DNA from: an uncultured Micavibrio sp.
GTDB lineage: Bacteria; Pseudomonadota; Alphaproteobacteria; Micavibrionales; Micavibrionaceae
Assembly: GCA_963973475.1 (NCBI GenBank)
Contig: CAXBAL010000001.1
Span: 1-38,939 of the forward strand
DNA: 38,939 nt
Reading direction: 5' to 3'
Below are positions 3,323 to 22,074 of the stretch, in pieces; position 1 is the stretch's first letter; each line of letters starts with the position of its first letter. The translations under genes and the position numbers were made by a program. The notes below the pieces were generated by a model that saw nothing but the letters and a program-made list of their open reading frames with translations, ran no database searches and was not told the DNA's origin.

Positions 3323-3901
3323 TTACGTTCCGAATAGTCGAGCAAAGAAGCCCCTCTTTTCATTATTTAAAAGCTTTTCCTGCTGGCTTTTTAATTCATT
3401 GATAACTGTTTCGAGATCGCTGAATTTCTTCTCATGTGATTTTTCTTTTTCCTCGATCTTGTCTTTCTCAGATCGCTGGTCGGTGAGCATGAGCGTCAGC
3501 CGGTCTTTTTGTTCTTCGGCTTTTATGCGCTGCTCTTCTGTTTTTTCAAGACGAGAGCGGAGGTCTCCAATCTGATCAGAGAGCTGTTTGCGTTCTCTTT
3601 CTCGCTCTGTCTCAAAACTTTTGAGTTTTTCGCGCATCAACTCCAATTCTGTTGAGACATTATCACTGTCTTGATTTGTCTCACCTTTTTTCTTTTTGGC
3701 TTTCTCGGCCTTCTCAACTTCTTCCAGAGTTTTGAGTTGATCACCATAGACGCGAACCAGCTCGGCCACATCTATGATCTTATTTCCCTTATCGTCTTGC
3801 TCGGTTGATATGGATTTCTCGTCGATGTGACGATAGAAAGTGGCGCGGGAAACGCCAACCATTTTAGCTGCTTTGGAAACAGATACTTTATTTGTACTCA
3901 T
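3323..3901 (-). CDS. HTH DNA-binding protein with long charged coiled-coil (KfrA-like architecture)
   Basis: N-terminal HTH (VSVSKAAKMVGVSRATFYRHI) followed by about 130 aa of E/K/R-rich heptad-like sequence. I chose the start at ATG 3901 (MSTNKV), which is preceded by GGTGAG. The track ORF starts further upstream at 3937. Confidence 0.6.
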   Translation of the reverse strand: MSTNKVSVSKAAKMVGVSRATFYRHIDEKSISTEQDDKGNKIIDVAELVRVYGDQLKTLEEVEKAEKAKKKKGETNQDSDNVSTELELMREKLKSFETERERERKQLSDQIGDLRSRLEKTEEQRIKAEEQKDRLTLMLTDQRSEKDKIEEKEKSHEKKFSDLETVINELKSQQEKLLNNEKRGFFARLFGT

Positions 3902-4045
3902 TTTCTCACCTCGTCGCATGAGACATCTCTGCGACATTTGTATTACTTTCTCACAGTATAAAGAAATTTTTTAAGAAAAAAATCCCTATTACCAAAAATC
4001 AGATTCGCATTGTGAGTCAAATCAGAGTGTCCAGAACTGTCTTAC

Positions 4046-7846: not shown

Positions 7847-8449
7847 TTACGCGGAAAGTTGTCGGGCAATCTCCGCAAGCCACGCGCTTTTAATATATCG
7901 CAGATTCTTGCGTATCTGGCTCTTATCACTGTCTGTTAAATGCCGGGCGCATTTTTGTATATGATCCCTTGTGACGTGCTTTTCCCCTAAATTATGAAGA
8001 GCCTGTAAAGTCACGCTCACGGGAGAATTCCAGTCTAGCAGAGTGTCCGGTATTGGGGATGACACCAGCCTGATTTGCTTATTTTTGACAGGAATTGTTT
8101 TTGGCTTGCCTGTTGTTGTGTAAACCACCTTTCCTGGAACTTGGGTTGTCAGCCCAAGTAGGTTTGCCGCTGTGGCTCCTGACTGTGCAATACGATCTCC
8201 TGTTTTTCTTGCAACGGCCTGTGCGACCCCTTTGACGCTCGGTGCCATGACACCGATATCTGCATCCAGTTTGGGGTAATCATATAGTCCACGCTGAATA
8301 CGGCGAATATCACCGTCCTGAACAAGACGGTATAAAATCACATCCACATTACTGCGTGATGCTAAATCGACAAAATCCTGCGGCGTAAAGACCCATCCAC
8401 GGCCTTTCCGCTTAATTCTGTTCATAATTTTTTGCGCTGTAGATAGCAT
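7847..8449 (-). CDS. AbiEi-like / DUF6088-family protein (antitoxin-like), no AbiEii partner
   Basis: Pattern: FTPQDFVDL...ILYRLVQDGDIRRIQRGLYDYP...SGATAANLLGLTTQVP. The start was chosen at ATG 8449, with AGGTGA 6 nt upstream. The track ORF starts at 8500. Confidence 0.6.
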   Translation of the reverse strand: MLSTAQKIMNRIKRKGRGWVFTPQDFVDLASRSNVDVILYRLVQDGDIRRIQRGLYDYPKLDADIGVMAPSVKGVAQAVARKTGDRIAQSGATAANLLGLTTQVPGKVVYTTTGKPKTIPVKNKQIRLVSSPIPDTLLDWNSPVSVTLQALHNLGEKHVTRDHIQKCARHLTDSDKSQIRKNLRYIKSAWLAEIARQLSA

Positions 8450-8546
8450 TTTTATCACCTCAATATGTAAGATAATAATATATATTAATCTTACATTCAA
8501 TTAGTTAATAATCTATGTATAACAAGGGTTTTGATAGGTTTTAATT

Positions 8547-8743
8547 AGCCCCCTTCGGGCCGATTTAACAAGACCTTCGCTGACGCTCACCTTCGGCTGA
8601 CTTGCCGGTATCCCCACCTTTCCGCGGCTTCGCCTTGTGCAAGGCGGGTGATCCCCCTCCGGCAAGTCCGGATCATGGTTAAATCTCCCCCGCTTTTGTG
8701 CCGCTATGCGGCTCATAGGAAAGAAGTGCAACACGCACTTTTA
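8547..8743. promoter_or_regulatory. conserved nested-hairpin element, copy 1 (candidate ssDNA promoter/priming signal or structured leader)
   Basis: Near-identical to copy 3 over about 140 nt and to copy 2 in the core and tail. Outer helix: 8598-8607/8658-8667. Middle helix: 8612-8619/8640-8647. Apical helix: 8625-8627/8631-8633. It ends 25 nt before the ParB-like ATG. Confidence 0.6.
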
Positions 8744-8768
8744 ACTAAATCAGCGAAAGGAAAAAACT

Positions 8769-10490
8769 ATGACTTACACAAAACTACCAATCACGAAAAT
8801 TCAGGTTTCGGATGCTAACCCTCGCAAAGCCTTCGATGAGGACTCAATTCTGGGCTTGGCTCAATCCATTAAAACGGACGGGTTGCTTCAAAATCTGATA
8901 GTCGGAAAAGCCAAAGGCAAAAAGAAACTACACCCTATTATCTGCGGTGAACGCCGTTTTCGGGCTATAAGCCATTTGGTTGAGAATGGTGATTTTCCCA
9001 AAGATTACGAGGTTACGGTTGAAATTAAAGACGACCTCGATGCCGATACAGCTTTGCGAATTGCCACAATGGAAAATATCCAGAGGCAAGATTTGACACC
9101 ATTGGAAGAAGCTCAAGCCCTTACCAAATTGGTTCAGGATGGCGAAAAACTCGATGATATTGTCGCGCAAACTGGTCTTAGCGCACACACTGTCAGACGC
9201 CGCCTTGTTCTCATGCAGTTAAGTGAGACCGTCAAAGAATGTCTTGAGACAGGTGAAATTACTCTCTCGCAGGCAGAAGCCTTGAGTATTGGGACTTTTG
9301 AGGAACAGGAACGCTGTCTCAACATGGCAAAATCAGGTTATTGGGATGCCGAGGATATCAAAGACCGTATTTTGGGCGATCTTCCGACCCTATCAATGGC
9401 TATTTTTGAGCGTGAGCTTTACACAGGTGACTATACAACCGACCTTTTAGGTGAGGACGATAACACCTATTTCAATGATGCAGAGCAATTCTTTGAACTG
9501 CAAAAGCAAGCGGCAGAAGAACTGGCAGAATCCTATCGTGAGAAGGCCGATTGGGTGGAATTTGTTGAGGGCTATTTCAGTGCTTGGCAGTATGGCCGCG
9601 CCGAAGAAGGTGAGACAGGAGGCGTTATTGTCTCGTTATCGGCAAGCGGTGCTATTGAAGTCCATGAAGGGCTTATCAAAACCAAGGCTGATGAAGATAC
9701 AGCAAATAGCCTTAAAGTGAAGCCTAAAGCCACCTACCCTACTCCGCTACGCCGTTATATGGCCATGCATAAAAGTATCGCGGTTCAATCGGCTTTGATT
9801 GAAAACCCAAGGGTTGCGAAACAGCTTGCTGTCGTAAACAAGCTATATCGCTTCAAAAACCATGATTGTCTGTCCTATTTCGAGCAGGAAGAGACAACCT
9901 CCCCTGCCCTCGCAATTATCAATGAACAGGCAAAGGCTTTATTGGCGCATTTCGGCCATGACTCCGAAGACGCTACATGGCGCGATTTGGGTTATCTTTT
10001 CAACTATGACCTAGAAGATGCCTATAAAGCTGTCAAAGACTTATCGGATGATGTTTTAGAAAGCCTTTTGGTGACACTGGATGCCTTGGAATTCGGGCAA
10101 TTATTCTGTGAACAGCTTGATACCTATGAGGGCAGTATCTTCAATCAGGTTGCTCAGGATTTGCGTGTTGATATGCGGAATTACTGGCGACCAGATGAAG
10201 CCTTTTTGAAACGCCGTAACAAGGTGCAATTACAGCAGATTGTTACCGATGCAGGGTGCTTTCAGAAATTCGGCAATGTTGCAGGATATAAGAAAAAAGA
10301 GCTTGTTACCTCTATGAGCAAGCATTTTCAGCATGTCCTTACTCTTGAAAGCCCGAATGAAGACGAGTTGAAAGCAACGTTCTGGATTCCAGAAGCTATG
10401 GCTTTCCCTGCGATTGACCCTGATGCCAAACAGGATGAGCTGGATACTATCGAAGAAGATAGTGCCGAGAACTTCAAAGAAGCCGCCTAA
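8769..10490 (+). CDS. ParB/Srx N-terminal-domain protein (large ParB-like leading-region protein)
   Basis: 573 aa. ParB N-domain motifs: ITKIQVSDANPRK, LLQNLIV, ICGERRFRA. An HTH follows (LDDIVAQTGLSAHTVRRRL), then a long C-terminal extension. Confidence 0.8.
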   Translation: MTYTKLPITKIQVSDANPRKAFDEDSILGLAQSIKTDGLLQNLIVGKAKGKKKLHPIICGERRFRAISHLVENGDFPKDYEVTVEIKDDLDADTALRIATMENIQRQDLTPLEEAQALTKLVQDGEKLDDIVAQTGLSAHTVRRRLVLMQLSETVKECLETGEITLSQAEALSIGTFEEQERCLNMAKSGYWDAEDIKDRILGDLPTLSMAIFERELYTGDYTTDLLGEDDNTYFNDAEQFFELQKQAAEELAESYREKADWVEFVEGYFSAWQYGRAEEGETGGVIVSLSASGAIEVHEGLIKTKADEDTANSLKVKPKATYPTPLRRYMAMHKSIAVQSALIENPRVAKQLAVVNKLYRFKNHDCLSYFEQEETTSPALAIINEQAKALLAHFGHDSEDATWRDLGYLFNYDLEDAYKAVKDLSDDVLESLLVTLDALEFGQLFCEQLDTYEGSIFNQVAQDLRVDMRNYWRPDEAFLKRRNKVQLQQIVTDAGCFQKFGNVAGYKKKELVTSMSKHFQHVLTLESPNEDELKATFWIPEAMAFPAIDPDAKQDELDTIEEDSAENFKEAA

Positions 10491-10503
10491 TTTCTCCGAA
10501 CTT

Positions 10504-10537
10504 GCCGCCCGATAATTCGGGCGGCTTTCTTTTTTTA
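10504..10537 (+). terminator. rho-independent terminator after the ParB-like gene
   Basis: The 8-bp GC stem GCCGCCCG/CGGGCGGC has a 6-nt loop and is followed by TTTCTTTTTTT. Confidence 0.7.
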
Positions 10538-10548
10538 AGGATATCCCC

Positions 10549-11208
10549 ATGAGTATTGACGAATTTACCAAAGAATTATTCAATCTAGACCGTTCCAAAT
10601 CAGCCTCAGAGAAATTCAGGGATTTTTGTGAACTGGCTTTTTGCGCCTATGCAAAGCTGACGGCTGCACCCGACCGCGCGGAAGCACTGGAAGAGCGTTA
10701 TATGAATATCGTTCAAACATACCATGACAAAGACACGGTTAGGGCATATCCCCGCCTAATGGCTATGGTCTGGCGCGGTGTGCAAGATGGACAGGACTTT
10801 CTCGGACAGGCCGCCGCCGAATTAAATGCGCTCGATGCCAAAACAGGACAGTTTTTCACACCAATGCCCGTGTCGAGAATGATGGCAATGATTGGATTAC
10901 AAGGCGCAGAGACTGCCATCAAAGAAAAAGGCTTTATTACCCTGAATGAGCCTGCATCGGGCGCAGGCGGGATGATATTAGCCGCCGCGAGCATCATAAA
11001 AGAAATGGGCTATGACCCCTCCTCCCATCTAATCGTGAGCGCACAGGACATTAGCCAGCTTGCTTATCAAATGTGCTTTTTGCAACTGACATTCGCAGGA
11101 ATACCCGCCTATCTGGAGCGTTGCAACAGCTTGTCTATGGAGTCTTTCGACGCTTCTTGGACGCCGGCCACGCTTGCCTTTTACAGGCAGCATGGCCGTC
11201 TTTTTTGA
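10549..11208 (+). CDS. truncated N6-adenine-methyltransferase-like protein (SAM-binding half only, no NPPY/F motif)
   Basis: 219 aa. It has GQFFTP (motif X-like) and LNEPASGAGGM (motif I), plus AQDIS..QMCFLQL (a GQE...N-like region). The protein ends about 25 aa later, and no (D/N/S)PP(Y/F/W) motif occurs anywhere in it. Confidence 0.6.
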   Translation: MSIDEFTKELFNLDRSKSASEKFRDFCELAFCAYAKLTAAPDRAEALEERYMNIVQTYHDKDTVRAYPRLMAMVWRGVQDGQDFLGQAAAELNALDAKTGQFFTPMPVSRMMAMIGLQGAETAIKEKGFITLNEPASGAGGMILAAASIIKEMGYDPSSHLIVSAQDISQLAYQMCFLQLTFAGIPAYLERCNSLSMESFDASWTPATLAFYRQHGRLF

Positions 11209-11224
11209 TCTTGGCTGTATCCGT

Positions 11225-11398
11225 CAAGACCTCCCTTCGGGCCGCTAAAGCGCACAAAAACGGTATCCCCGCCTTTCCGCGTCTTCGACTTGTGCAAGGC
11301 GGGTGATCCCCCTCCGTTTTTGTGGGTCGTGACTGCTCCAGCCGCTTCTTAAGCCGTTTCACGGCACTTCTAGGAAAGAAGTGCAACACACATTTTAA
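11225..11398. promoter_or_regulatory. conserved nested-hairpin element, copy 2
   Basis: Outer helix: 11253-11263/11314-11324 (11 bp, perfect). Middle helix: 11268-11275/11296-11303. Apical helix: 11281-11283/11287-11289. It ends 12 nt before the ardC ATG. Confidence 0.6.
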
Positions 11399-11410
11399 GG
11401 AGAAAAGAAG

Positions 11411-12283
11411 ATGAAACGCACCGATATTTACCAATCCGTTACTGACACAATCATTGAAGCCTTGGAGCAAGGTTTATCAGGTGACTTTGAATTGCCTTGG
11501 CATGGTTGTGGAGGTGTTCCCCAGAACGCCCGCACAGGAAACTATTATCACGGTATCAATGTGCCTTTGCTATGGGCGCACCAGATGAAAAGCGCCTATT
11601 CAAGCGGAACATGGGCAACTTATAAACAATGGCAGGATATGGGCGCACAGGTAAAAAAGGGCGAGAAAGGCCGCCAGATTGTTTTTTGGAAATCCATAGA
11701 AGTCGAGCCAACCGAAGACAATGAACAGCGCGAGCAAATTATGTTTGCCAAATATTCAACTGTCTTTAATGCCGATCAGGTTGATGGATATACCCTGCCC
11801 CAAGATGATTTTGAGCCGAATGATATACAGGCTATTTCTGCGGCAGACCAGCTCATTGACGCTTCAGGCGCAGATATTCGCTTTGATGAGCGCCGCGCAT
11901 ATTACAGCGTCATGGATGATTATATCAATCTACCAAGCCCTGAATTTTTCAGACATACCTGCGGCTCTACAGCTACGCAGAATTACTACAGCACTGCATT
12001 TCACGAGCTTGTTCACTGGACAGGCGCGGAAAAACGCCTGAACCGTGAGCAGAAGCATAGATTTGCTTCAAAAGACTATGCTTTCGAGGAATTGGTCGCA
12101 GAACTTGGCGCCGCCATGCTTTGTGCATCTACAGGCGTAGAGTCAAGCCCCAGAGAAGACCACGCCATTTATATACAAAACTGGCTGAAAGCCTTGAAGG
12201 ACGACAAGAAGTTTATCTTTTCGGCCAGCTCACAGGCACAAAAAGCCGCTGATTATCTCTTTTCTTTCACCAATCAAGATTAA
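11411..12283 (+). CDS. ardC: antirestriction protein ArdC (ssDNA-binding N-domain plus HExxH metalloprotease domain)
   Basis: 290 aa. ArdC N-domain pattern: WHG...PQNARTGNYYHGINVPLLW...WATYKQW. The C-domain has FHELVHWTG and AFEELVAELGAAML. Confidence 0.9.
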   Translation: MKRTDIYQSVTDTIIEALEQGLSGDFELPWHGCGGVPQNARTGNYYHGINVPLLWAHQMKSAYSSGTWATYKQWQDMGAQVKKGEKGRQIVFWKSIEVEPTEDNEQREQIMFAKYSTVFNADQVDGYTLPQDDFEPNDIQAISAADQLIDASGADIRFDERRAYYSVMDDYINLPSPEFFRHTCGSTATQNYYSTAFHELVHWTGAEKRLNREQKHRFASKDYAFEELVAELGAAMLCASTGVESSPREDHAIYIQNWLKALKDDKKFIFSASSQAQKAADYLFSFTNQD

Positions 12284-12295
12284 CCCAAGATAAAA

Positions 12296-12316
12296 GGCAG
12301 GGGAAAGCCCCCTGCC
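12296..12316 (+). terminator. hairpin after ardC (weak terminator)
   Basis: GGCAGGGG-AAAGC-CCCCTGCC. The downstream T tract is poor (CCTTTA). Confidence 0.4.
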
Positions 12317-12336
12317 CCTTTAATGAGGAGCAAATT

Positions 12337-12510
12337 ATGACTTATCTCGTATTCATTGACACGCAATCAGGCGAAAAAACGCATTCCATTTGGAACAACT
12401 GCGAAGACTGTAAGCATCAAGTGGATGTTCTGAACAGCGCAGGCTATTGCGCTTGGTGGGAATTCATACCCGCCGCGCTGAATGCCCCGAATGGCCAATA
12501 TCTTGTCTAA
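12337..12510 (+). CDS. small hypothetical protein (57 aa), below ORF-track length cutoff
   Basis: My translation: MTYLVFIDTQSGEKTHSIWNNCEDCKHQVDVLNSAGYCAWWEFIPAALNAPNGQYLV. A GAGGAG Shine-Dalgarno lies 7 nt upstream of the ATG. Confidence 0.4.
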   Translation: MTYLVFIDTQSGEKTHSIWNNCEDCKHQVDVLNSAGYCAWWEFIPAALNAPNGQYLV

Positions 12511-12547
12511 GCCCCCTACTCTCAATTTTTAAAAAAAGGAATACACT

Positions 12548-12973
12548 ATGCAACAAGCACAAACACTTACATGGGATGAAACTGAGATTGCTAATGCCTA
12601 CGCGGCTGAATTTTTAGCCGCCGAGATAGCCGAGACGGAAGACGAAGCCTTCTCTATGGCAATATCGGATACGCAAGTCATAGAATGGGAATTCGAAGAT
12701 TTTAAGGAACAGCTTAAAACCATTCTTGACGATATTTCGCCCGAAGGCTTTTTCTATGTAGAAGGCCGGAATATGGGCTGGAGACGATTATCAGGCCATG
12801 CGGAGATAAAAGCAGATAGTGCAGAATCCTATATTGAAAAAGCCTTCCCTAAAACATCGGAATGGACGTTTCGAGGCGTTTACACCCCTTCCAAAAAGTC
12901 TTTGGATTATACGCTTTATCACCATGACGCGCCTACTGGAGAGTTTTATACTGTCATTGCAAATTCGGCATAA
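12548..12973 (+). CDS. strongly acidic hypothetical protein (141 aa)
   Basis: An AAGGAA Shine-Dalgarno is present. By my count there are roughly 27 D/E versus 11 K/R. I recognise no family. Confidence 0.6.
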   Translation: MQQAQTLTWDETEIANAYAAEFLAAEIAETEDEAFSMAISDTQVIEWEFEDFKEQLKTILDDISPEGFFYVEGRNMGWRRLSGHAEIKADSAESYIEKAFPKTSEWTFRGVYTPSKKSLDYTLYHHDAPTGEFYTVIANSA

Positions 12974-12984
12974 GGCGTGAAAAG

Positions 12985-13240
12985 GAGTAAGTAGGATTTT
13001 CTTTACCTCTGCATATATAAAAGAGTAAGTACGGAAGTAAAGATTTAGCGAAAATAACACAACGGTAAAACCCTACTTACACTTGTTGGTATTTCACTAA
13101 GACGGTAAGACCTTACTTCTCTAAATCATCAGAAAGGTACTTTACGAAGATGGTAAGTCACTATATACTCTAAATGGTAAGTCATTAACTCTTCACGAGA
13201 ACACCTGCCGACTTACCGTCAAGAATAAGTCACTACTTCA
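12985..13240. repeat. centromere/operator-like array of GTAAG/CTTAC-containing repeats upstream of parA
   Basis: GGTAA(A/G)NC copies occur at 13064, 13104, 13152 and 13176. An inverted GACTTACC lies at 13211-13218. GAGTAAGTA occurs at 12986 and 13023, and ATAAGTCACTACTTC at 13225. Confidence 0.55.
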
Positions 13241-13263
13241 CACCTTTGTTCAAGGAGCTAAAA

Positions 13264-13947
13264 ATGTCATATATTATCGCTATATCCAGCTCAAAAGGCG
13301 GCCCTGGCAAAACCAATACTGTTGCCAACCTCGCCGATTATTGGGCTTTAAAGGGTAAGAAAGTCGCCATGCTCGACTCTGACCCGAACAAAAATCTTTC
13401 CAAATGGTACAATAAGAAAGCCTTCGATGACGCTTTTGCAGGGGTAAGCTTGCAAACCTTAGAGGATGAAGAGCAGATTATCGATGCTGCGGAAGCGGCC
13501 GCGCAGGAACACGACATTGTTTTGATTGATGTAGCCGGTGTGCGGAGTAGGGCGCTTTTATATGCGGCCGGTATTGCCGATCTGGTAATTGTTCCTGCGC
13601 AGCCTTCCGAAGATGATATTGATGAAGCTATCAATACAATCGAGGCTGTTAAAAGTGCAGGGAAGCTTGCCAAGCGCGATATTAAATACCGCGTCCTGTT
13701 GTCTCAAACACGCAAAGGCACGATTGTTTTGGAACACGCCGCCAAGCAGTTTGAGGAAATCAATAATATCAAAATCTTCCGCACGACTATCGGACAACGC
13801 GAAGCCCATAAACAGGCGCGTTTCTACGGTACTACCGTCATGCGCACAGAACCTAAAAGTCCTGCTGCTGAAGACTTTGCAAATCTGGGCAAGGAAATCG
13901 ATAAAGTTTTGAAAGAGGAAGCCAAGCTGCAAAAACAAGCGGCATAA
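13264..13947 (+). CDS. parA: ParA/Soj-type partition ATPase (small, type Ib-like)
   Basis: Deviant Walker A SSSKGGPGKTN. Also DSDPN and LIDVAG. The ATG at 13264 is preceded by AAGGAG. The track ORF starts at a TTG at 13246. Confidence 0.9.
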   Translation: MSYIIAISSSKGGPGKTNTVANLADYWALKGKKVAMLDSDPNKNLSKWYNKKAFDDAFAGVSLQTLEDEEQIIDAAEAAAQEHDIVLIDVAGVRSRALLYAAGIADLVIVPAQPSEDDIDEAINTIEAVKSAGKLAKRDIKYRVLLSQTRKGTIVLEHAAKQFEEINNIKIFRTTIGQREAHKQARFYGTTVMRTEPKSPAAEDFANLGKEIDKVLKEEAKLQKQAA

Positions 13948-13948
13948 G

Positions 13949-13978
13949 TAGAGAAGTCTTTACTTCTGTACTTCTCTA
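13949..13978. repeat. 9-bp inverted repeat TAGAGAAGT/ACTTCTCTA between parA and the ParG-like gene
   Basis: The arms are at 13949-13957 and 13970-13978. The loop contains TACTTC, the same word as in the upstream array. Confidence 0.4.
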
Positions 13979-14004
13979 TTTAATCATTTATGAAAGGGAC
14001 TATC

Positions 14005-14310
14005 ATGGCAAAACCAAGTTTAAAGAATCTTCCGAATGTCGGCACGGAAAACCGTAACGCGGACGAGCTGAAAAAGCGCTTATCAGAAGGGGCAAAGGAT
14101 TATCCAAGCCTGAAAGTGGAAAAAAAGAAGGATGCGACCAAGAAGCGCAAGAAATCCTCTTTATCCATGCCGGAATATGTTTGGGATCTTCTATGGGATG
14201 CGACCAAAGAGAGTAGGGAACCCCAAGGTGTTATCGTAATGCGCGGTTTAAAAGCTTTGGGCTTTGAAATTGATGAAGCCGATCTGGTAGATGCCCGTAA
14301 GACCCGCTAG
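14005..14310 (+). CDS. small basic protein with C-terminal RHH-like fold (ParG-like centromere-binding candidate)
   Basis: It lies immediately after parA. It has a lysine-rich linker and then SLSMPEYVWDLLWDATKESREPQGVIVMRGLKALG. The ATG at 14005 is preceded by GAAAGGGA. Confidence 0.55.
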   Translation: MAKPSLKNLPNVGTENRNADELKKRLSEGAKDYPSLKVEKKKDATKKRKKSSLSMPEYVWDLLWDATKESREPQGVIVMRGLKALGFEIDEADLVDARKTR

Positions 14311-14508
14311 GGTCAGGGCGTTCCCTTGTGCTTTGACAAGCCCAAGGTCAGGCTCTATTCACTAACCAGCCCCAAGCGGCCGAGGCCACTTCGGGCTGCT
14401 AAGTTCACCGAACCTCGGTTGCCCGAGTTTCGGCCCATACGGGTAACGATCCCTAACGCGATCATGGCAAGGCCATTCCTGATAGGAATGGTCATTTGTA
14501 TTTAAAGA

Positions 14509-14700
14509 GGCCGCTTCGGCCCGATTATCAAGACCTTCGCTGACGCTCACCTTCGGCTGCCTTGCCGGTATCCCCACCTTTCCGCGTCTTCGACTTGTGC
14601 AAGGTGGGTGATCCCCCTCCAGCAAGGCCGGGTCATGACAATCTCCTCCCGCTTCAAGCGACAGATTCCTGTCGCCTCGAAAAAAGTATGTTTCGAGGCG
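14509..14700. promoter_or_regulatory. conserved nested-hairpin element, copy 3
   Basis: Outer helix: 14559-14568/14619-14628. Middle helix: 14573-14580/14601-14608. Apical helix: 14586-14588/14592-14594. Two small hairpins follow at 14658-14675 and 14673-14700. It ends 26 nt before the DUF6876 ATG. Confidence 0.6.
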
Positions 14701-14726
14701 CAATTTAAAAGGAAAAGGAGTTCGCT

Positions 14727-15128
14727 ATGACAGACCAACAAACACAATCACTTAACGGCAACCAACGCAACAAGCTGCGCGAGCAGGATTTAGCCAATTT
14801 TTACGGCACAGAAGTCTGGTACAGACACCCCGCTTTTAGAACCTATCTTTATACTGAAGGCGTGCAATATGTTGCAGAACATGGTGAAGCCTATTGGCTT
14901 TTGGATAAAATTTTTGCCTGTCATGCCAGTGTCCCAAAATTATCAGGTGAGGATTTTTGTAGTTGGGAGCTGAATAAGAATGCAGAAGGGCATGGCGCCA
15001 GGCTTATTTGCACAGATGGCAATTATAACGAGCTGTATTCTGAGAGCATTCTCTACACTGATTTTCCGCTTACCAGCATCAAGTTCTATTGTGTGAATAA
15101 TGTCTTGTTGCTCCCCACAGAATATTAA
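14727..15128 (+). CDS. DUF6876-like leading-region protein
   Basis: Pattern: FYGTEVWYRHPAF...YTEGVQYVAEHGEAYWLLDKI...YTDFPL...LLLPTEY. A GGAG Shine-Dalgarno is present. Confidence 0.65.
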   Translation: MTDQQTQSLNGNQRNKLREQDLANFYGTEVWYRHPAFRTYLYTEGVQYVAEHGEAYWLLDKIFACHASVPKLSGEDFCSWELNKNAEGHGARLICTDGNYNELYSESILYTDFPLTSIKFYCVNNVLLLPTEY

Positions 15129-15142
15129 GGGGAGGGCAGGAT

Positions 15143-16084
15143 ATGACACAGCTTGATTATTCAAAATTCAAAACAGAGATAAACTTGACCCAGTATGCCG
15201 CGCATCTAGGCTATGAGATAGACCGTAAGAAAAGCACACGCTCATCCATAGCCATGCGAAAAGACAGCGATAAAGTTATAATTTCAAGGCGTGGCAATCT
15301 TTGGGTTTATTTTTCGGTCACAGACGATAGCGACAACGGCACTATTATCGACTTTGCCGAGAAGCGCACTCATAAAAGCATTGGCGAAATTGGGCGCGAC
15401 CTGCAAAACTGGATTGGCGGCGGCGTCTCACTGCCTCATGCAAAAAGCTATGTGCGAGAGGTTGCCCCTCAAGAATATGACCCCGCACGTATTGCTGGAA
15501 TTTTTAAAGCCTTAAAACCCGTCAATAAACACCGTTATTTGGCCAGCAGAGGGCTTACAGATGCCCTTTTGACAGAAAGACGGTTTGCAGGGCGCGTTTT
15601 TACAGACCGCTATCAGAACGCCGCATTTCCGCATTTTAAGGATGGTCAGGTTTGCGGGCTTGAATTGAAAAACCACGATAAAGCACTTTTTGTCAGGGGA
15701 AGCGAAAAAACTCTTTGGCGCTCATATGTTTTCAAGGATGACAATACACTGATTTTGGCAGAAGCCGTGATAGATGCATTGAGTTACCATGCGCTATATC
15801 ATAGGGAAAAAGCTGTCTATGCTGCTACAGGGGGTGGGTTATCGCCAGAGCAGGGAGAAATTATTACGGCTTTCATCTGCGATTTTGAAGCTCTGGAACA
15901 CATTATCATTATTCCCGACCATGACCAAGGCGGCGAAAAGTTTGAAAAGCGCATCCGTGAAGCCATCGAGTTATCGAGCTTTAACGGATTGTGTGAAACG
16001 CACAGGCCATGCCTAGAAGGGCAGGACTGGAACGATGTTTATAAGGACACACCCGAAAAAACTGGAAAAATTATGCATATATGA
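15143..16084 (+). CDS. DUF3991/Toprim-domain protein (primase-like conjugative protein)
   Basis: 313 aa. The Toprim acidic motifs are LILAEAVIDALS and IIIPDHDQGGEKF. A GGGGAGG Shine-Dalgarno is present. Confidence 0.75.
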   Translation: MTQLDYSKFKTEINLTQYAAHLGYEIDRKKSTRSSIAMRKDSDKVIISRRGNLWVYFSVTDDSDNGTIIDFAEKRTHKSIGEIGRDLQNWIGGGVSLPHAKSYVREVAPQEYDPARIAGIFKALKPVNKHRYLASRGLTDALLTERRFAGRVFTDRYQNAAFPHFKDGQVCGLELKNHDKALFVRGSEKTLWRSYVFKDDNTLILAEAVIDALSYHALYHREKAVYAATGGGLSPEQGEIITAFICDFEALEHIIIIPDHDQGGEKFEKRIREAIELSSFNGLCETHRPCLEGQDWNDVYKDTPEKTGKIMHI

Positions 16085-16133
16085 TACAATTATTGTATTA
16101 TTTATGCTTTAAAACTGTTTTATGGAGGTAAAA

Positions 16134-16394
16134 ATGCCCAATATTGATTTAGGTGATCCGTATGAATCTTACGTCAAAGGTTTAATTGGATCAGGATTAT
16201 ACAGCACTTATGCCGAAGTGGTTAAGGATGCTTTACGCCTTCACATGAATAATGAAACACCTTCAAAACAAATGGCTTTTATTCATAGCGCTATTTTGGA
16301 AGGAGAAGCCGATATTCAAGCCGGTCGCACGAAAAAATATTCGCCCAAGATGCTGGATAGTATGACAGAGGACGTTTTAAAAGAAGATGTCTGA
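16134..16394 (+). CDS. parD: ParD-family type II antitoxin
   Basis: Sequence: NIDLGDPYESYVKGLIGSGLYSTYAEVVKDALRLH. The ATG at 16134 is preceded by GGAGG. It overlaps the toxin gene by 8 nt. Confidence 0.75.
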   Translation: MPNIDLGDPYESYVKGLIGSGLYSTYAEVVKDALRLHMNNETPSKQMAFIHSAILEGEADIQAGRTKKYSPKMLDSMTEDVLKEDV

Positions 16395-16695
16395 AAACTA
16401 CCAAATTCAATTTTCCGCGCGCGCAGAAAAAGATTTCAAATCTATTCAGCGATACACGCTCAAGACCTATGGTGAAAAGCAGGTCTGGATTTATACAGGG
16501 ATGCTGAAAGAAGCTTTACGAAAACTCGAAGAAAACCCGAAATTATATGGTCATATGCGCCCTGATATTCCACAGATCTATCGCGCTTACAAAATTGGCG
16601 AACACAGCCTGATTTATCGTATCGAAGACCGAACTGTTTATTTAATTGCTATATTACATGGTAGCATGGATTTTACCTCTCAACTCAAAACCTAG
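16387..16695 (+). CDS. parE: ParE/RelE-family type II toxin
   Basis: 102 aa. It is a typical ParE (A..D...I..Y ... YR.Y..G.H.I.YRIED..V.I..ILH) and is translationally coupled to parD. Confidence 0.75.
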   Translation: MSENYQIQFSARAEKDFKSIQRYTLKTYGEKQVWIYTGMLKEALRKLEENPKLYGHMRPDIPQIYRAYKIGEHSLIYRIEDRTVYLIAILHGSMDFTSQLKT

Positions 16696-16810
16696 ATTTA
16701 CAGTGTTGCAATAATGCTGACGATTTCCTTTTTTTGGAAATTATCGACCAAACAGCCTTATGCCTTTCAAGATTGGGCAATTTAACTGACCTGCCTTCGC
16801 CTATGCTTCA

Positions 16811-16868
16811 AGAATAAATTTCCCCTTTTCGCGTTCGCTCAAATTCCTCGCGGGAGCAAATTTATTCT
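16811..16868. repeat. 11-bp perfect inverted repeat AGAATAAATTT / AAATTTATTCT with 36-nt GC-rich spacer
   Basis: The arms are at 16811-16821 and 16858-16868. The palindromes GACGCGTC and GCCGGC follow. It sits in the intergenic region between parE and the DUF736 gene. Confidence 0.35.
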
Positions 16869-16959
16869 GTGACGCGTCGAAGCCGGCCAGTGAATTTTAT
16901 GCCATCGTAAAAGGGCAATATGGTGTTGCTTTGGTGATAATCAAGAAAAGGAAAATACA

Positions 16960-17265
16960 ATGTCAATTATAGCAAATATGAAAAAACAAGAGAATGGAAG
17001 TTTTGAAGGAAAACTGAAAACAGCAACCTTGAATCTTCATCTCAAATTACAGCCTATCGGTGATGCTGAAGCGAATGATAACAAGCCTGATTTCAGAGCC
17101 AAAATCGGAAGCTTCGAAGCAGGTGCAGGGTGGAATAAGATTAGCGATAATCAAAATCCCTACATTTCCGTTCAGATTGATGCGCCGGAATTCCCAAATC
17201 CGATTTACGCCAATCTGGTTCAAAAAGACGACCAGTATATTTTGATCTGGTCACGCCAAAACTAA
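16960..17265 (+). CDS. DUF736-family protein
   Basis: Pattern: ENGSFEGKLKT..L......PDFRA....FEAGAGWNK......PYISVQIDAPEFPNPIYANL...LIWSR. Confidence 0.8.
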   Translation: MSIIANMKKQENGSFEGKLKTATLNLHLKLQPIGDAEANDNKPDFRAKIGSFEAGAGWNKISDNQNPYISVQIDAPEFPNPIYANLVQKDDQYILIWSRQN

Positions 17266-17273
17266 CTCACTTT

Positions 17274-17300
17274 AGCCCCTCGCAAAGAGGGGCTTTTTCT
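17274..17300 (+). terminator. rho-independent terminator after the DUF736 gene
   Basis: AGCCCCTC-GCAAA-GAGGGGCT followed by TTTTCT. Confidence 0.75.
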
Positions 17301-17375
17301 TGTTCGAAATGCGCTCTTATCGGAAATGATGAGGGCGATTTTTGTGCTTTGAATCAACCACTATGCAGACCAGTA

Positions 17376-17404
17376 GATAGGGCATGTAGAGAGCGGATAG
17401 GGCA
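17376..17404 (+). promoter_or_regulatory. direct repeats GATAGGGCA x2, 20 bp apart (candidate accessory-protein binding sites near oriT)
   Basis: The copies are at 17376-17384 and 17396-17404, in the AT-rich region upstream of the relaxase gene. Confidence 0.3.
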
Positions 17405-17523
17405 GTATAAAATGTGACAGTGAAGTGCGTTTGGTAGATATTAGATTAATACAAGATAAAAGATATAAATTATATTTATACGAACTTATTGTTATTATTG
17501 TGTAATTTACACGTTTATAAGTC

Positions 17524-17552
17524 TTGTAATAAGGTAAAATAAATTGTATATT
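17524..17552 (+). promoter_or_regulatory. sigma70-like promoter TTGTAA-17 nt-TATATT upstream of the relaxase gene
   Basis: The hexamers are at 17524-17529 and 17547-17552. Confidence 0.4.
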
Positions 17553-17583
17553 AGGAGGGTGTAAAATTGCGTTTTTCACGTGA

Positions 17584-19656
17584 ATGAGAAAAGAAGAATT
17601 GATGTTTTTAGATCGGATCAGGGCTGAGAATTTTACGGGGAGCGATGGCGTTTCCCGGCCATTGATCGTGACCAGAGATAGCCCCAGAAAAGCGTTCTTT
17701 AAAAAGCTCAATCGTCATGGTGAGGTAAAGTCAGGACCGAAAAAAATCAAACGCAGATCGGGACTGATGCGCGGCAATTCATTTGCAGGTTTGGCATCGG
17801 CGCAGCGCGTTGTTGTGAAAATCAATCCGGTGAAGAACAAGACTAAGGGGGTTGGATCGGGCGCAAATTCCGGCGGCCAAAATCTCTATCATCACATCCA
17901 TTACATTAGCCGAAACAGGGCAGGTGAGGATGCTGAAAAAGCCATCCTGTTTGATGCTAAAAACGAGGGATTGGAGCGTCAAGATTTTTTCGAGTTATGC
18001 AAAAATGATCGTCACCATTTTCGGATGATCATCTCGCCGGAGCGGGGCAATGAGATCGAAGATTTTAGAGGCTATGTTCGGGAAGTGATGAAGCGTGCCC
18101 AAGGGGATCTCAAGACCAAACTCTCATGGGTGGCGGCTGTTCATTATGATACTGATGATGTTCATGCGCATGTGATCATTCGGGGCAAAGATGCGCGCGG
18201 TGAGGATCTGGTGATGGCTCGCGATTATATCGCATTTGGCATTCGCGCAAGAGCGCAAGAGATTGCAACCGAGTTATTGGGCGAGCGCTCAATCGAAGAC
18301 ATTCAAAAAGGATTGGAGAAGGAAGTGGACGCGCTGCGGGTCACTTCTTTAGACCGCTTTATTGAAAAGCAGGTTGGCGAAGATCAGGTGGTCGATGTCC
18401 GCAAAGACAATAATTTCGGTAAATCGGCGCATTATGAGTCTGTCCTGAAAGGGCGGTTGCGCTATCTGGCCTCAAGCGGCATGGCGGTCGAGAACCCTCC
18501 GGGGGTCTATACACTGAAAGAAGGGTATAGAGATGTCCTGGCCAGTATTGCCACGCGCAATGATGTGATTAAAAAGCTTTATGAGCGCGTAGAGGGCTTG
18601 GATGATCTTGAAGTCTATTCTCTAAAAGCCGGAGAGGGGCAGGTTATTGAAGGGCGCGTTTTGGATAAAGGGCCAGCCGATGAGCTTACAGACAAGAAAT
18701 ACATTGTTGTTGAAGCTCTCTCTGGCGGAAAGCATTACGTTCCAGTTGGAGAAGCCTTTAATTATGATGAGGTGAATAAGCGCGGCCTCGTGCGTGTTCG
18801 CCCATTCGATCATTCAACCGGTAAGGCCGATCACAATATCGCGCTGATAGCAGCCCAGAATGAGGGTATTTACGATATTGAGAAGCACCGCGCCTATATC
18901 GCTAAGGAACAGTCTTACATCGATGAGGACGTTCGAGAGCCTTACTTACAATCCCATATCAAACGGATTGAGACGCTTGTGCAAAATGAAGCGGCTACAG
19001 AATTAGGGCAGGGGCGTTATCAAATCCCTGATGATGTGATCGAAAAGGGCAAAGAGATCTCTGCCAAAATCAATGCGCGTGAGAAAAAGCGGTTCTATCC
19101 AAAGCTTGATATTCTTTCATCCCATGCACCGGAAGATATGGTGGATGCGAAAAAGAAGACCTGGCTGGATAAAGAGCTTTATAAGAGAAGCAAGGGAGAT
19201 CGCAGTATCACCGATCAATCTTTAGAAGCTGCGCTTCAAAAACGTCAGCAATGGCTTGTCGATAACAAACTGGCAATGATCCAGTCTAATGGTGAGTTTG
19301 CCATGAAGAAATCAGCAATGCGCGATCTCAGCGTCATGGAAGTTCATGAAGAGGGTAAATTCCTGGCCACAAAAGCCGGTCTTACCTTTAACGATCATAA
19401 AGTCTCATCCGATCAGGCTTATACTTATCTTGGTTATACCGAACTTGAAACAGGAAAATGGGCGGTTGCGATGCGCGGGAAAGAGCTGCAAATGGCGCGG
19501 ATTGATAAAGCCCCCGATCTTGAAAAAGGACAAAAGGTTCAATTTAATGAAATCGAGCGCGGACTATTCGAAATGCGCGCCGCCGAACAACAAAAACAGC
19601 AAGACAGGCAGCAATCATCACGCGGGCGTGATGATGATAATGAAATGGAGCTATAA
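17584..19656 (+). CDS. conjugative relaxase (VirD2/MobP-like nuclease domain with DUF3363-type C-terminal region)
   Basis: 690 aa. It has RVVVKINPV, HHIHYISRNRAGED, DRHHFRMIISPE and the histidine triad HYDTDDVHAHVII. An alternative start lies at ATG 17602 (MFLDRIR). Confidence 0.85.
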   Translation: MRKEELMFLDRIRAENFTGSDGVSRPLIVTRDSPRKAFFKKLNRHGEVKSGPKKIKRRSGLMRGNSFAGLASAQRVVVKINPVKNKTKGVGSGANSGGQNLYHHIHYISRNRAGEDAEKAILFDAKNEGLERQDFFELCKNDRHHFRMIISPERGNEIEDFRGYVREVMKRAQGDLKTKLSWVAAVHYDTDDVHAHVIIRGKDARGEDLVMARDYIAFGIRARAQEIATELLGERSIEDIQKGLEKEVDALRVTSLDRFIEKQVGEDQVVDVRKDNNFGKSAHYESVLKGRLRYLASSGMAVENPPGVYTLKEGYRDVLASIATRNDVIKKLYERVEGLDDLEVYSLKAGEGQVIEGRVLDKGPADELTDKKYIVVEALSGGKHYVPVGEAFNYDEVNKRGLVRVRPFDHSTGKADHNIALIAAQNEGIYDIEKHRAYIAKEQSYIDEDVREPYLQSHIKRIETLVQNEAATELGQGRYQIPDDVIEKGKEISAKINAREKKRFYPKLDILSSHAPEDMVDAKKKTWLDKELYKRSKGDRSITDQSLEAALQKRQQWLVDNKLAMIQSNGEFAMKKSAMRDLSVMEVHEEGKFLATKAGLTFNDHKVSSDQAYTYLGYTELETGKWAVAMRGKELQMARIDKAPDLEKGQKVQFNEIERGLFEMRAAEQQKQQDRQQSSRGRDDDNEMEL

Positions 19657-20506: not shown

Positions 20507-20833
20507 ATGAGAACTGCGGATATAATGGTATCACTTATAACACCAGCAAAAGCGCAAAAAAAGCTCGCAGAGCAAGCGCGGGCACGGCGCCTGCAAATGG
20601 AATTAACGCAGGAAGGTCTGGCGGAGCGCTCAGGTGTTGCATTGCCGACCCTTCGCAAGTTTGAACGCACGGGCGCTCTATCCCTGGAATCATTTCTTAA
20701 GCTTCACATGGTGCTTGGCGGATTGGAAGATATCCTTAAAGCTACGCAAATTAAAGAAGAGAGCTATTCTTCCATCGATGATGTATTGAAGTCAGATAAC
20801 GTACCTATCCGCAAGAGAGGGACACGCAAATGA
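20507..20833 (+). CDS. hipB: HipB-like XRE-family HTH antitoxin
   Basis: Sequence: LTQEGLAERSGVALPTLRKFERTG. It overlaps hipA by 4 nt (ATGA). The start could be ATG 20507 or ATG 20525. Confidence 0.75.
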   Translation: MRTADIMVSLITPAKAQKKLAEQARARRLQMELTQEGLAERSGVALPTLRKFERTGALSLESFLKLHMVLGGLEDILKATQIKEESYSSIDDVLKSDNVPIRKRGTRK

Positions 20834-22074
20834 AGAACTATCTCTCTGCAACAGAAGTAAGGGTCGGCATTAATTTTGGCGAAGGTGTTCAAACTGTAGG
20901 CAGATTAGCTGTACGGGAGCACAAGATTTATTTTGAATATGATAGCGCCTTTATAAAAAGCGGCATAGAGATATCACCGCTACGCTTGCCTTTACTATCA
21001 GGTGTTCAAAGTTTTGATCATGACCTTTTTGAAGGCTTGCCCGGTGTATTTAACGACAGCTTGCCTGATGGTTGGGGACGGTTATTGTTTGATCGTTTTA
21101 TAAGATCACAGGGAATATTGCCCTCAGATATAACACCGCTTGATCGCTTGGCGCATGTGGGGTCACATGCTCTTGGCGCACTTGTGTTTGAACCTGATCA
21201 CAGCGCAGATGATACACAAGGCGATATAAACCTTGATAACCTTGCCTCGCAAGCGCAAGAGGTTTTGGACGGAACGTCGGATGACGTATTGGCGGAACTC
21301 ATAGCCTTAAACGGATCTTCAGCGGGAGCAAGGCCAAAAGCACTAATCGGTGTAAACGAGAAAAGGGATCATATCATTCATGGTCTACATGATTTACCCG
21401 CAGGTTATGCACCATGGATGGTTAAATTCCCGAATAGTCAAGATGGGCTAGATGCCGGTGCAATCGAATTTGTATATGCATTGATGGCAAAAGAGGCTGG
21501 CATTACCATGCCTGATGTCCATCTTTTTCAAGCAGAGCGCGGCGCAGGTTATTTTGCGATTAAGCGCTTTGATCGTGATGGTGACAAACGATACCACATG
21601 CACACGGCTTGCGGATTGTTGCATTCAGATTTCCGCACACCTTCATTGGATTACGAAGATTTAATTGCGCTCACTGGTATGCTGACTCGCGATGTGCGTG
21701 AGGTGGAAAAGCTATATCAGCTGGCCGTGTTTAACGTGTTAGCTCATAATCGCGATGATCATTCCAAAAATTTCAGTTATTTGATGGATAGCCAAGGGGG
21801 ATGGAAACTTTCCCCTGCCTATGACCTCACATTCTCATCTGGCCCACGCGGCGAACAAAGCATGATGGTTATGGGTGAAGGTAAAAACCCTGATACAAGC
21901 CATCTGTTAAAGCTGGCAGATGAAGCGAAAATCAAAAAAGACCGTGCGCTTGAGATTATTGAGAGCACAAAATCTAGCCTGTCCAAATGGCCAGAGCTTG
22001 CAAAGCAATATGGCGTTAGTGATATGAACATTAAGCTGATACAAAGCAGAATATCGCAGGTGGCCGGAGAATAA
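20830..22074 (+). CDS. hipA: HipA-family serine/threonine kinase toxin
   Basis: 414 aa. N-domain: DSLPDGWGRLL. Kinase core: SSAGARPKA, FAIKRFDR, HNRDDHSKNFSYLM, LSPAYDL. Confidence 0.9.
   Translation: MKNYLSATEVRVGINFGEGVQTVGRLAVREHKIYFEYDSAFIKSGIEISPLRLPLLSGVQSFDHDLFEGLPGVFNDSLPDGWGRLLFDRFIRSQGILPSDITPLDRLAHVGSHALGALVFEPDHSADDTQGDINLDNLASQAQEVLDGTSDDVLAELIALNGSSAGARPKALIGVNEKRDHIIHGLHDLPAGYAPWMVKFPNSQDGLDAGAIEFVYALMAKEAGITMPDVHLFQAERGAGYFAIKRFDRDGDKRYHMHTACGLLHSDFRTPSLDYEDLIALTGMLTRDVREVEKLYQLAVFNVLAHNRDDHSKNFSYLMDSQGGWKLSPAYDLTFSSGPRGEQSMMVMGEGKNPDTSHLLKLADEAKIKKDRALEIIESTKSSLSKWPELAKQYGVSDMNIKLIQSRISQVAGE

Follow-up and report, generated by a model that had tools for sequence, protein, structure and literature searches.

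A stretch of 38,939 nucleotides from an uncultured Micavibrio sp. (assembly GCA_963973475.1, contig CAXBAL010000001.1; hereafter the window) carries three copies of a nested hairpin element, each of them upstream of a gene start. A first-pass annotation of the sequence had proposed that this element is a candidate single-stranded DNA (ssDNA) promoter or priming signal, which raises the questions whether the structure is real, on which strand it folds, whether it does so as DNA or as RNA, and what it might do. The feature is real and widespread, with strong support, and our searches turned up no earlier description. As to its function, we lean, on sequence evidence, towards an initiation signal on the single transferred strand (T-strand) that would drive early expression, and perhaps priming, of establishment genes.

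A nested hairpin in three copies

The first 20 nucleotides (nt) of the core of the element, GGTATCCCCRCCTTTCCGCG, occur exactly three times in the window, at 8607, 11262 and 14567 and always on the plus strand, and not once in 100 dinucleotide shuffles of it. The core is a nested hairpin of about 60 nt in each copy. Reading and aligning the three regions reproduced the core string given in the first-pass annotation, common to all copies and with four variable positions, and the other details of that description held as well. The outer helix of copy 2 (CACAAAAACGG with CCGTTTTTGTG) pairs as described, and has no sequence relation to its counterpart in copies 1 and 3, CTTGCCGG/CCGGCAAG. Between copy 2 (CCCGCCTT/AAGGCGGG) and copy 3 (CCCACCTT/AAGGTGGG) a G-C to A-T double change is seen in the middle helix. 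The apical helix reads GGC/GCC in copy 1 but GTC/GAC in the other two, while the asymmetric internal loop TATC / TGATCCCCCT is the same in all three. Every copy is followed by two small hairpins and then by a Shine-Dalgarno (SD) sequence and an ATG (8769, 11411 and 14727). Of the two imperfect pairs, said to be wobbles on the minus strand only, the one in copy 1 is an A.C of the middle helix and the one in copy 3 a C.A of the outer helix; on the minus strand both are G.T.

Beyond what had been described, each copy has an extra outer helix (Table 1). When the minus strand is folded as DNA, all nested helices are recovered together with this outer helix, and the z-scores of the DNA folds range from -1.75 to -4.09. 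Each copy sits within a cassette of about 200-270 nt that ends with the SD and ATG; the gaps to the preceding gene differ among the three copies, from 8 to about 190 nt.

A large family with covarying helices

The element is not private to the window, but belongs to a large family. A megablast search of PLSDB with positions 8400-15200 gave no near-identical plasmid; the core of about 55 nt alone matches 61 PLSDB plasmids (of Sphingomonadales, Rhodobacterales and Hyphomicrobiales), in up to five places per plasmid. Scanning one genome per species for an exact pattern gave at least 120 loci. The pattern CTTGTGC...GTGATCCCCC served to retrieve the genome loci, and a covariance model (R1, with scores in bits) was built from 47 copies. 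A search with this model, of the Infernal type suggested in the first-pass annotation, returned 109 copies (86 from the first 100 sources, a further 23 from the 27 searched next), residing in plasmids, regions resembling integrative and conjugative elements (ICEs) and contigs of metagenome-assembled genomes (MAGs), and carried mostly by Alphaproteobacteria.

Covariation, for which a test had likewise been suggested, is strong in the 84 distinct copies. In the model alignment of these copies 95.5% of the cells pair, versus 75.1% in shuffles, the covariation score is 0.476 versus 0.128, and double changes affecting both sides occur at 15 of the 22 pairs. A MAFFT alignment of 47 copies, made from the sequences only, has 92.5% pairing cells versus 72.6% in shuffles and a score of 0.454 versus 0.132. 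None of 500 shuffles reached the observed score in either alignment, and controls with slid pairing scored at most 0.10 (model) and 0.13 (MAFFT). The outer helix (H1) is free to vary in sequence while its pairing is kept, and most copies also have a second helix (H2; GCAAGGG/CCCTTGC or CAAGACC/GGTCTTG). The nested hairpin structure is real.

Three further observations concern the make-up of the family. A 40.3-kb contig of an uncultured alphaproteobacterial MAG (CAXBFT010000001.1; L066) contains near-identical versions of all three cassettes, with R1 scores of 88-91 bits, and probably represents either the plasmid of the window itself or a sister plasmid. A subfamily with a long apical part, found in 25 of 72 copies (e.g. 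L006 5293-5406 and L023 7353-7468), has an insertion of 38-42 nt in the apical loop that is closed by GCGGAT/ATCCGC. A phage origin was considered and rejected, as only one of 30 viral-contig pattern matches is a real copy; the 29 viral contigs without the element (among L127-L156, IMG/VR) match the retrieval pattern mostly with a 26-nt span, and seem to have some other conserved sequence in common.

Folding strand and DNA-type loops

On the strand complementary to the downstream genes the aligned copies contain 90 G.T cells (at 14 pair positions) versus 7 A.C cells (at 6 positions), a bias also seen in the MAFFT alignment. One middle-helix pair is most often G.T (in 42 of 81 copies), where a plus-sense fold would have A.C. 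These counts rule out that the main folded form is a plus-sense leader RNA: folding takes place on the strand complementary to the downstream genes. A stem finder with symmetric scoring was uninformative as to strand, giving 39 G.T versus 33 A.C for hairpin B, the longer of the hairpins between core and SD, and 76 versus 83 for H2, both having nearly perfect stems that this finder over-extends.

The loops of the minus strand are of a particular kind. Nineteen of its 34 short apical loops are C-GAA-G (GCGAAGC in seven of them), and three more are GCGCAGC. In 80 cassettes, CGAAG occurs 99 times on the folding strand versus twice for its complement CTTCG; the stem of the triloop is extended at 68 of 98 CGAAG occurrences, and a fit to a cUUCGg tetraloop in plus-sense RNA is found at 26 of the 98 only. 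On the window minus strand CGAAG occurs four times in copies 1 and 3 and twice in copy 2, and CCGAAGG is found in the bulges of copies 1 and 3. Mini-hairpins of the GCGNAGC type are extraordinarily stable as DNA and far less so as RNA, are poorly bound by SSB (the protein that binds single-stranded DNA), and occur in the complementary-strand origins of G4, St-1 and alpha3, in ssiA of RSF1010 (as CCGAAGG) and in the ssDNA promoters of the virion RNA polymerase (vRNAP) of phage N4 (PMC13037366). The apical and flanking minus-strand loops are d(C-GAA-G)/d(GCGAAGC) mini-hairpins, i.e. loops of the DNA type, which lends new support to a structure at the level of DNA. A strand dense in CGAAGG/GCGAAGC motifs was also seen in pBBR1 (L157) at 1340-1530, upstream of rep; the R1 score of this region is 12.6 bits, which is no real match.

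Plasmid setting and presumed transfer polarity

The window is a conjugative plasmid, containing RepC, a BrxA/BrxB fragment, ParDE, DUF736, HipA, a relaxase and, on the minus strand, a VirB/VirD4 type IV system. All its cassette-linked genes face the relaxase gene. Cassette genes are co-oriented with the relaxase in all five elements that have an annotated one (the window, pDE2, pOANT02, pHSL1 and a Roseibium plasmid), and in the first four of these they lie directly upstream of an operon for an accessory protein and the relaxase, on the same strand. The F leading region contains the same gene classes in the same orientation relative to the tra genes. In F and RP4 the relaxase gene enters the recipient last. 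If this is also the case here, then the folding strand is the T-strand and serves as template of the cassette genes, and we infer from gene orientation that the minus strand of the window is the one transferred.

The origin of transfer (oriT) is presumed to lie between about 16.7 and 17.6 kb. A reading of 16650-17620 gave no convincing candidate, and a search of the window for RP4/VirD2-type nic sites (ATCCTGY) gave matches at chance level, none of them near the relaxase. Between parE and DUF736 lies an 11-bp inverted repeat (AGAATAAATTT...AAATTTATTCT, 16811-16871), a possible oriT or operator.

The position of the element relative to the following gene is fixed. In nearly all copies a start codon with SD lies 90-107 nt past the core end ...CCCCCTCC, with a conserved layout in which a C-run is followed by a small hairpin, then by a longer, near-perfect one and the SD. 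The 72 distinct open reading frames (ORFs) downstream comprise 28 ParB-like, 10 ArdC, nine DUF932, five ArdA and three DUF6876 members, the rest being methylases and several DUFs. As a side observation on the untranslated region (UTR) of main-class cassettes (e.g. L076, L105), its hairpin B (GGGTTGCAGCGC...GCGCTNCAACCC) has a C.C or C.T mismatch at a fixed place in most copies.

Proposed mechanism

We propose that the plasmid enters the recipient 5' to 3' from an oriT beside the relaxase gene, so that the minus strand of the window would arrive alone. This strand would fold into a long irregular hairpin, consisting of H2, a bulge, H1, the asymmetric loop AGGGGGATCA/GANA, the middle helix, the junction TGCACAA/GCGGAA and an apical d(C-GAA-G) mini-hairpin, with smaller mini-hairpins on its flanks. 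Such very stable DNA hairpins would probably stay free of SSB and could offer a landing site to a host enzyme, most likely RNA polymerase, recognition taking place through the invariant loop and junction on the T-strand. RNA synthesis would start at, or just past, the base of the hairpin, with the T-strand as template, and the transcript would carry hairpin B, the SD and the establishment gene (ParB-like/methylase, ArdC, ArdA, DUF932 or others). It may also prime complementary-strand synthesis, as do the transcripts from Frpo, the ssDNA promoter of plasmid F. Once the duplex is made, the hairpin could no longer form and the signal would be switched off. By analogy, the element would be an alphaproteobacterial functional counterpart of Frpo and not its homologue.

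A simple scan identified no sigma-70-type (E. coli-type) duplex promoter inside the three window cassettes, and no promoter upstream of the cassette edge is conserved across copies; a terminator-like hairpin lies just upstream of copy 3 and a sigma-70-like site (8452-8479) ahead of copy 1. The sequence CTTG(A/C) is the -35 core of alphaproteobacterial promoters. On the T-strand, the 3' arm of H2 keeps a -35-like CTTG(A/C) in 15 copies in which the partner arm has drifted, including all three window copies, and might, tentatively, supply a fork-junction promoter with its duplex -35. The spacing in CCCTTG...CCCC and in TTGC repeats is wrong for sigma-32-like and sigma-54-like readings, which were rejected by eye.

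For the reading as ssDNA promoter or priming signal speak the structure, the minus-strand bias, the covariation, the leading-region genes, the co-orientation with the relaxase and the lack of an Rfam match. The first-pass proposal is partly supported; no canonical -35/-10 pair was found in the stems. Several points weigh against our proposal. The stems do not rebuild the pair TTGACA-17-TATAAT, and the sole -10-like motif, WAGYNA, is found in 31 of 82 copies on the single-stranded tail, 19-23 nt 3' of CTTGNN, a spacing too long for a duplex promoter, which makes the motif a weak lead only. The G.T wobbles are equally compatible with a minus-strand RNA, mini-hairpins are documented mainly at primase sites, and the T-strand is identified through the rule that the relaxase gene is the last to enter; no nic site was recognised in the window. 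Since the genome loci were retrieved with an exact pattern, 17 loop positions are in part invariant by construction; in seven R1-found copies that lack the retrieval pattern the loops are kept with 1-3 changes. Finally, real copies are present in Bacteroidota, Verrucomicrobiota and beta- and gammaproteobacterial isolates, where promoter rules differ, which argues against a sigma-specific signal. High-scoring copies in cultured isolates outside the Alphaproteobacteria are those of Dokdonia pacifica (L082), Cerasicoccus arenae (L040), Nitrosospira multiformis (L049), Pseudoxanthomonas (L023) and Thiothrix pTfr153 (L094), which suggests either broad-host-range carriers or a reader of the signal without sigma specificity.

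A wider claim, to which we give a little less credence, is that the family may represent a widespread and earlier undescribed class of ssDNA initiation signals of alphaproteobacterial conjugative elements, with spill-over to other phyla. Unlike Frpo in architecture, it would consist of fork-type promoters in which only a -35-like duplex is rebuilt, recognition being completed by the invariant loops and the GNA mini-hairpins. The cassette would then be a portable early-expression unit with its own UTR and ribosome-binding site, placed before a dozen anti-restriction and establishment gene families.

Alternative explanations

The presence of copies in several phyla points to a rather universal reader, which keeps a primase-type signal the main rival of a transcriptional one. 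As a pure single-strand initiation signal (ssi), T-strand hairpins would recruit host DnaG, PriA or the Toprim/DUF3991 protein of the element itself, providing several start sites in the leading region with no role in expression. The d(C-GAA-G) mini-hairpins of G4-type origins and RSF1010 ssiA, which exclude SSB, are a precedent for this (PMC13037366). Strand and direction fit, a Toprim/DUF3991 gene is present in the window (Table 1), the spread over phyla suits a sigma-independent enzyme, and no canonical promoter hexamers were found in the cassettes. Priming, however, requires neither the distance of 90-107 nt to the start codon nor a conserved UTR hairpin and SD. Moreover, the copies follow the operon starts of establishment genes rather than a spacing along the DNA, and Toprim is absent from the tally of 72 downstream ORFs and is thus no constant neighbour. 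We regard priming alone as unlikely but worth serious attention. Priming and transcription do not exclude each other: Frpo does both (PMC12672017; 2026 bioRxiv preprint).

G.U-type wobbles on the minus strand are what a cis-antisense RNA would show as well, i.e. a structured minus-strand transcript that spans the element and the 5' UTR and, in cells where the plasmid is established, holds down translation of the establishment genes. Conservation extends to the SD and ATG, the region that such an RNA would cover, and a small GC hairpin lies at its would-be 3' end. This hairpin has no U-run, however, there is no conserved promoter, and conservation ends at the ATG, beyond which the coding regions differ between copies. 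Nor was a promoter-like minus-strand site found in the three window cassettes, or a match to an Rfam small RNA family, and C-GNA-G triloops are of the DNA type, their RNA forms being much less stable. We consider this explanation improbable.

Similarly little weight is given to a purely structural role on the T-strand, in which the hairpin would stall complementary-strand synthesis or block nucleases, its neighbours remaining single-stranded for longer and being transcribed from elsewhere. The ssp2 hairpin of F, an ssDNA promoter that also blocks conversion, is a known case (10.64898/2026.01.09.698686), and mini-hairpins withstand heat and nucleases. Two internal loops, on the other hand, have invariant unpaired nucleotides, which suggest specific recognition and not stability alone, and the fixed distance to the start codon is left unexplained.

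The occurrence of one cassette type before at least 12 gene families, together with the strand-specific folding known from attC, could also point to a recombination site for shuffling of cassettes as ssDNA (attC-like or a HUH target). The element is tied to the downstream ATG and not to the upstream stop codon, as the variable upstream gaps in the window illustrate, the window ORFs scanned showed neither an integrase nor a HUH gene, no core resembling R/L boxes was seen, while homologous recombination between copies suffices for shuffling; the idea is very improbable. Hardly credible, finally, is a plus-sense leader RNA (riboswitch, attenuator or antiterminator) within an extended 5' UTR transcribed from an ordinary upstream promoter; a known leader RNA of this sense was one of the cases that the first-pass annotation had named as speaking against its proposal: the position upstream of genes and the one sigma-70-like site ahead of copy 1 agree with it, but about 5% of the paired plus-strand cells would be A.C mismatches, this being the commonest state at the middle-helix pair mentioned above, and neither an Rfam match nor a conserved promoter beyond the cassette edge was found.

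Relation to known systems

A cmscan of the window and 14 loci against Rfam 15 gave no match on the element at the gathering score, and none at E<=5. In the literature, ssDNA promoters were found described for IncF and IncI plasmids only and none for Alphaproteobacteria, in line with the earlier remark that the motif was not recognised as a described family. A survey of leading regions had located ssDNA promoters by BLAST with five Frpo/ssi sequences (PMC11541004), and enterobacterial ssDNA promoters work poorly in Sinorhizobium meliloti (PMC12672017).

With the Frpo/ssi signals of F, ColIb-P9 and pESBL (classes 1-3) the element shares long hairpins in multiple copies, located between genes of the leading region. 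In both, the hairpins lie on the template strand of genes such as ssb, psiB, ardA, klcA, methylase and ParB-like genes, with a co-oriented relaxase, and the concept is that of a signal active only in single strands and also able to prime. The position before establishment and anti-defence genes is common to both, and the T-strand polarity presumably so. Sequence homology, by which the survey had assigned its members (PMC11541004), is absent: R1 has no match at E<=0.1 in F 48-68 kb and a blastn search of that region with the three cassettes gave noise only, in agreement with the first-pass statement that no similarity to Frpo was seen. Nor do the stems rebuild a -35/-10 pair at about 17 bp, only the CTTGNN in H2 and the weak WAGYNA being present. 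Without such a canonical pair the likeness to Frpo, which had been put forward as one in concept, is indeed of that kind (position, strand logic, multiplicity) and does not amount to membership. The element further differs in its mainly alphaproteobacterial hosts and in its invariant asymmetric internal loops and GNA mini-hairpin caps, and its activity is a prediction.

The G4-type origins and RSF1010 ssiA/ssiB are ssDNA hairpins capped by SSB-excluding mini-hairpins of the d(GCGAAAGC)/d(CCGAAGG) type (PMC13037366), and a GNA/GNNA cap is found here too. These signals, however, lie in replication origins, independent of neighbouring genes, and are read by DnaG or RepB', whereas the present element lies close to genes and has a UTR and SD attached, is much longer, and contains conserved internal loops. 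The N4 virion RNAP promoters resemble the proposed signal in being start signals only as extruded or ssDNA hairpins, whose stem has 5-7 bp and whose triloop is GGA/GAA; the RNAP that reads them is T7-like and carried by the phage, and no gene for such a polymerase was seen among the window ORFs. STAXI (RF01728) and the radC motif are structured as well, and in mobile elements they are neighbours of ssb, Toprim, antirestriction and integrase genes; a possible ssDNA function was raised by their authors (PMC2864571; PMC5587801), and this is the nearest published idea. STAXI differs in being a tandem pseudoknot of Enterobacterales, judged likelier to act as RNA for its UUCG loops, and gave no cmscan match here at E<=5.

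The ssoA and ssoU origins are folded ssDNA read by host RNA polymerase for primer synthesis, and are needed after conjugative entry. As compared by description only, they differ in belonging to Gram-positive rolling-circle replicating plasmids, in single copy and unattached to genes. Integron attC sites are bound to the 3' end of the preceding cassette and have an integrase nearby; the element is not placed in this way, and there is no integrase among the scanned window ORFs.

Coordinates and neighbouring genes

The features of the three cassettes and the genes linked to them are listed in Table 1.

Table 1. Cassette features and linked genes in the window. Pairing arms are joined by "with"; sequences are given on the plus strand unless stated.
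Feature	Position	Strand	Description	Score
Cassette copy 1	8541-8771	- (folding)	from A/T-rich edge and small hairpin (8548-8561) to ATG of ParB-like gene	R1 90.8 bits (8593-8675)
Copy 1 long hairpin	8562-8685	-	outermost helix GATTTAAC 8562-8569 with GTTAAATC 8678-8685
Copy 1 imperfect helix	8570-75 with 8670-77		AAGACC with GGATCATG
Copy 1 bulge	8576-8599		two CTTCG (CGAAG on minus strand)
Copy 1 H1	8600-8608 with 8659-8667
Copy 1 loops	8609-12; 8649-58		TATC; TGATCCCCCT
Copy 1 middle helix	8613-20 with 8641-48
Copy 1 apical helix	8626-28 with 8632-34		GGC with GCC
Copy 1 downstream hairpins	8700-8740		A, GCCGC TAT GCGGC (8700-8712); B, AAGTGC AACAC GCACTT (8724-8740); then SD, ATG 8769
Genes after copy 1	8769-11208	+	ParB_N/HTH_ParB protein (8769-10490); N6 DNA methylase-like ORF (10549-11208)
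Cassette copy 2	11216-11413	- (folding)	from just past methylase stop (11208) to ardC ATG (11411)	R1 89.5 bits (11248-11330); z = -4.09
Copy 2 long hairpin	11223-11333	-	H2 GTCAAGACC 11223-31 with GGTCGTGAC 11325-33, 8/9 pairs; 3' arm read on minus strand GGTCTTGAC
Copy 2 bulge	11232-11252		holds two small hairpins
Copy 2 H1	11253-63 with 11314-24
Copy 2 loops	11264-67; 11304-13		TATC; TGATCCCCCT
Copy 2 middle helix	11268-75 with 11296-11303		CCCGCCTT with AAGGCGGG
Copy 2 junctions	11276-80; 11290-95		TCCGC; TTGTGC
Copy 2 apical helix	11281-83 with 11287-89		GTC with GAC; loop TTC (C-GAA-G on minus strand)
Copy 2 downstream hairpins	11353-11384		A, GCCG TTTCA CGGC (11353-65); B, GCACTTCT AGGAA AGAAGTGC (11364-84)
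Copy 2 SD and start	11397-11402; 11411		AAGGAG; ATG
Gene after copy 2	11411-12283	+	ArdC (ArdcN and zincin MPTase-PolyVal)
Cassette copy 3	14500-14729	- (folding)		R1 89.2 bits (14553-14635); z = -2.78
Copy 3 small hairpin	14509-21
Copy 3 outer helix	14523-35 with 14630-43
Copy 3 bulge	14536-59
Copy 3 H1	14560-68 with 14619-27		one C.A (G.T on minus strand)
Copy 3 loops	14569-72; 14609-18
Copy 3 middle helix	14573-80 with 14601-08
Copy 3 apical part	14586-94
Copy 3 downstream	14658-14727		hairpin A 14658-75; hairpin B 14675-98; SD 14715-20; ATG 14727
Genes after copy 3	14727-16084	+	DUF6876 (14727-15128); DUF3991/Toprim primase-like protein (15143-16084)
Relaxase	17584-19656	+	Relaxase/MobL/DUF3363; downstream of, and co-oriented with, all cassette-linked genes

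Other genes of the window were noted in passing. On the minus strand at 1769-2978, BrxB and BrxA lie beside an HTH gene (3323-3937); this is either a partial BREX system or a fragment of one, at the edge of the window. On the flanks of the transfer region are a ParD/ParE toxin-antitoxin pair (16122-16695), a HipA kinase toxin (20830-22074) and an AbiEi-like/DUF6088 gene (7847-8500).

Implications

As far as our literature search shows, ssDNA promoters are known experimentally only from enterobacterial IncF and IncI plasmids. The family described here gives a covariance model and a precise, testable candidate for early expression in alphaproteobacterial elements, and thereby addresses the question how anti-restriction genes are expressed on entry of the plasmids and ICEs of rhizobia, agrobacteria, Brucella/Ochrobactrum, sphingomonads and roseobacters. 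Its strand-specific wobbles and DNA-only mini-hairpins make it a natural case for telling an ssDNA structure from an RNA by sequence alone. The family is also a computational marker of leading regions, transfer polarity and early genes in the elements that carry it, and through it several uncharacterised families, i.e. DUF6876, DUF3768, DUF3846, DUF6915 and DUF2958, become candidate anti-defence early genes.

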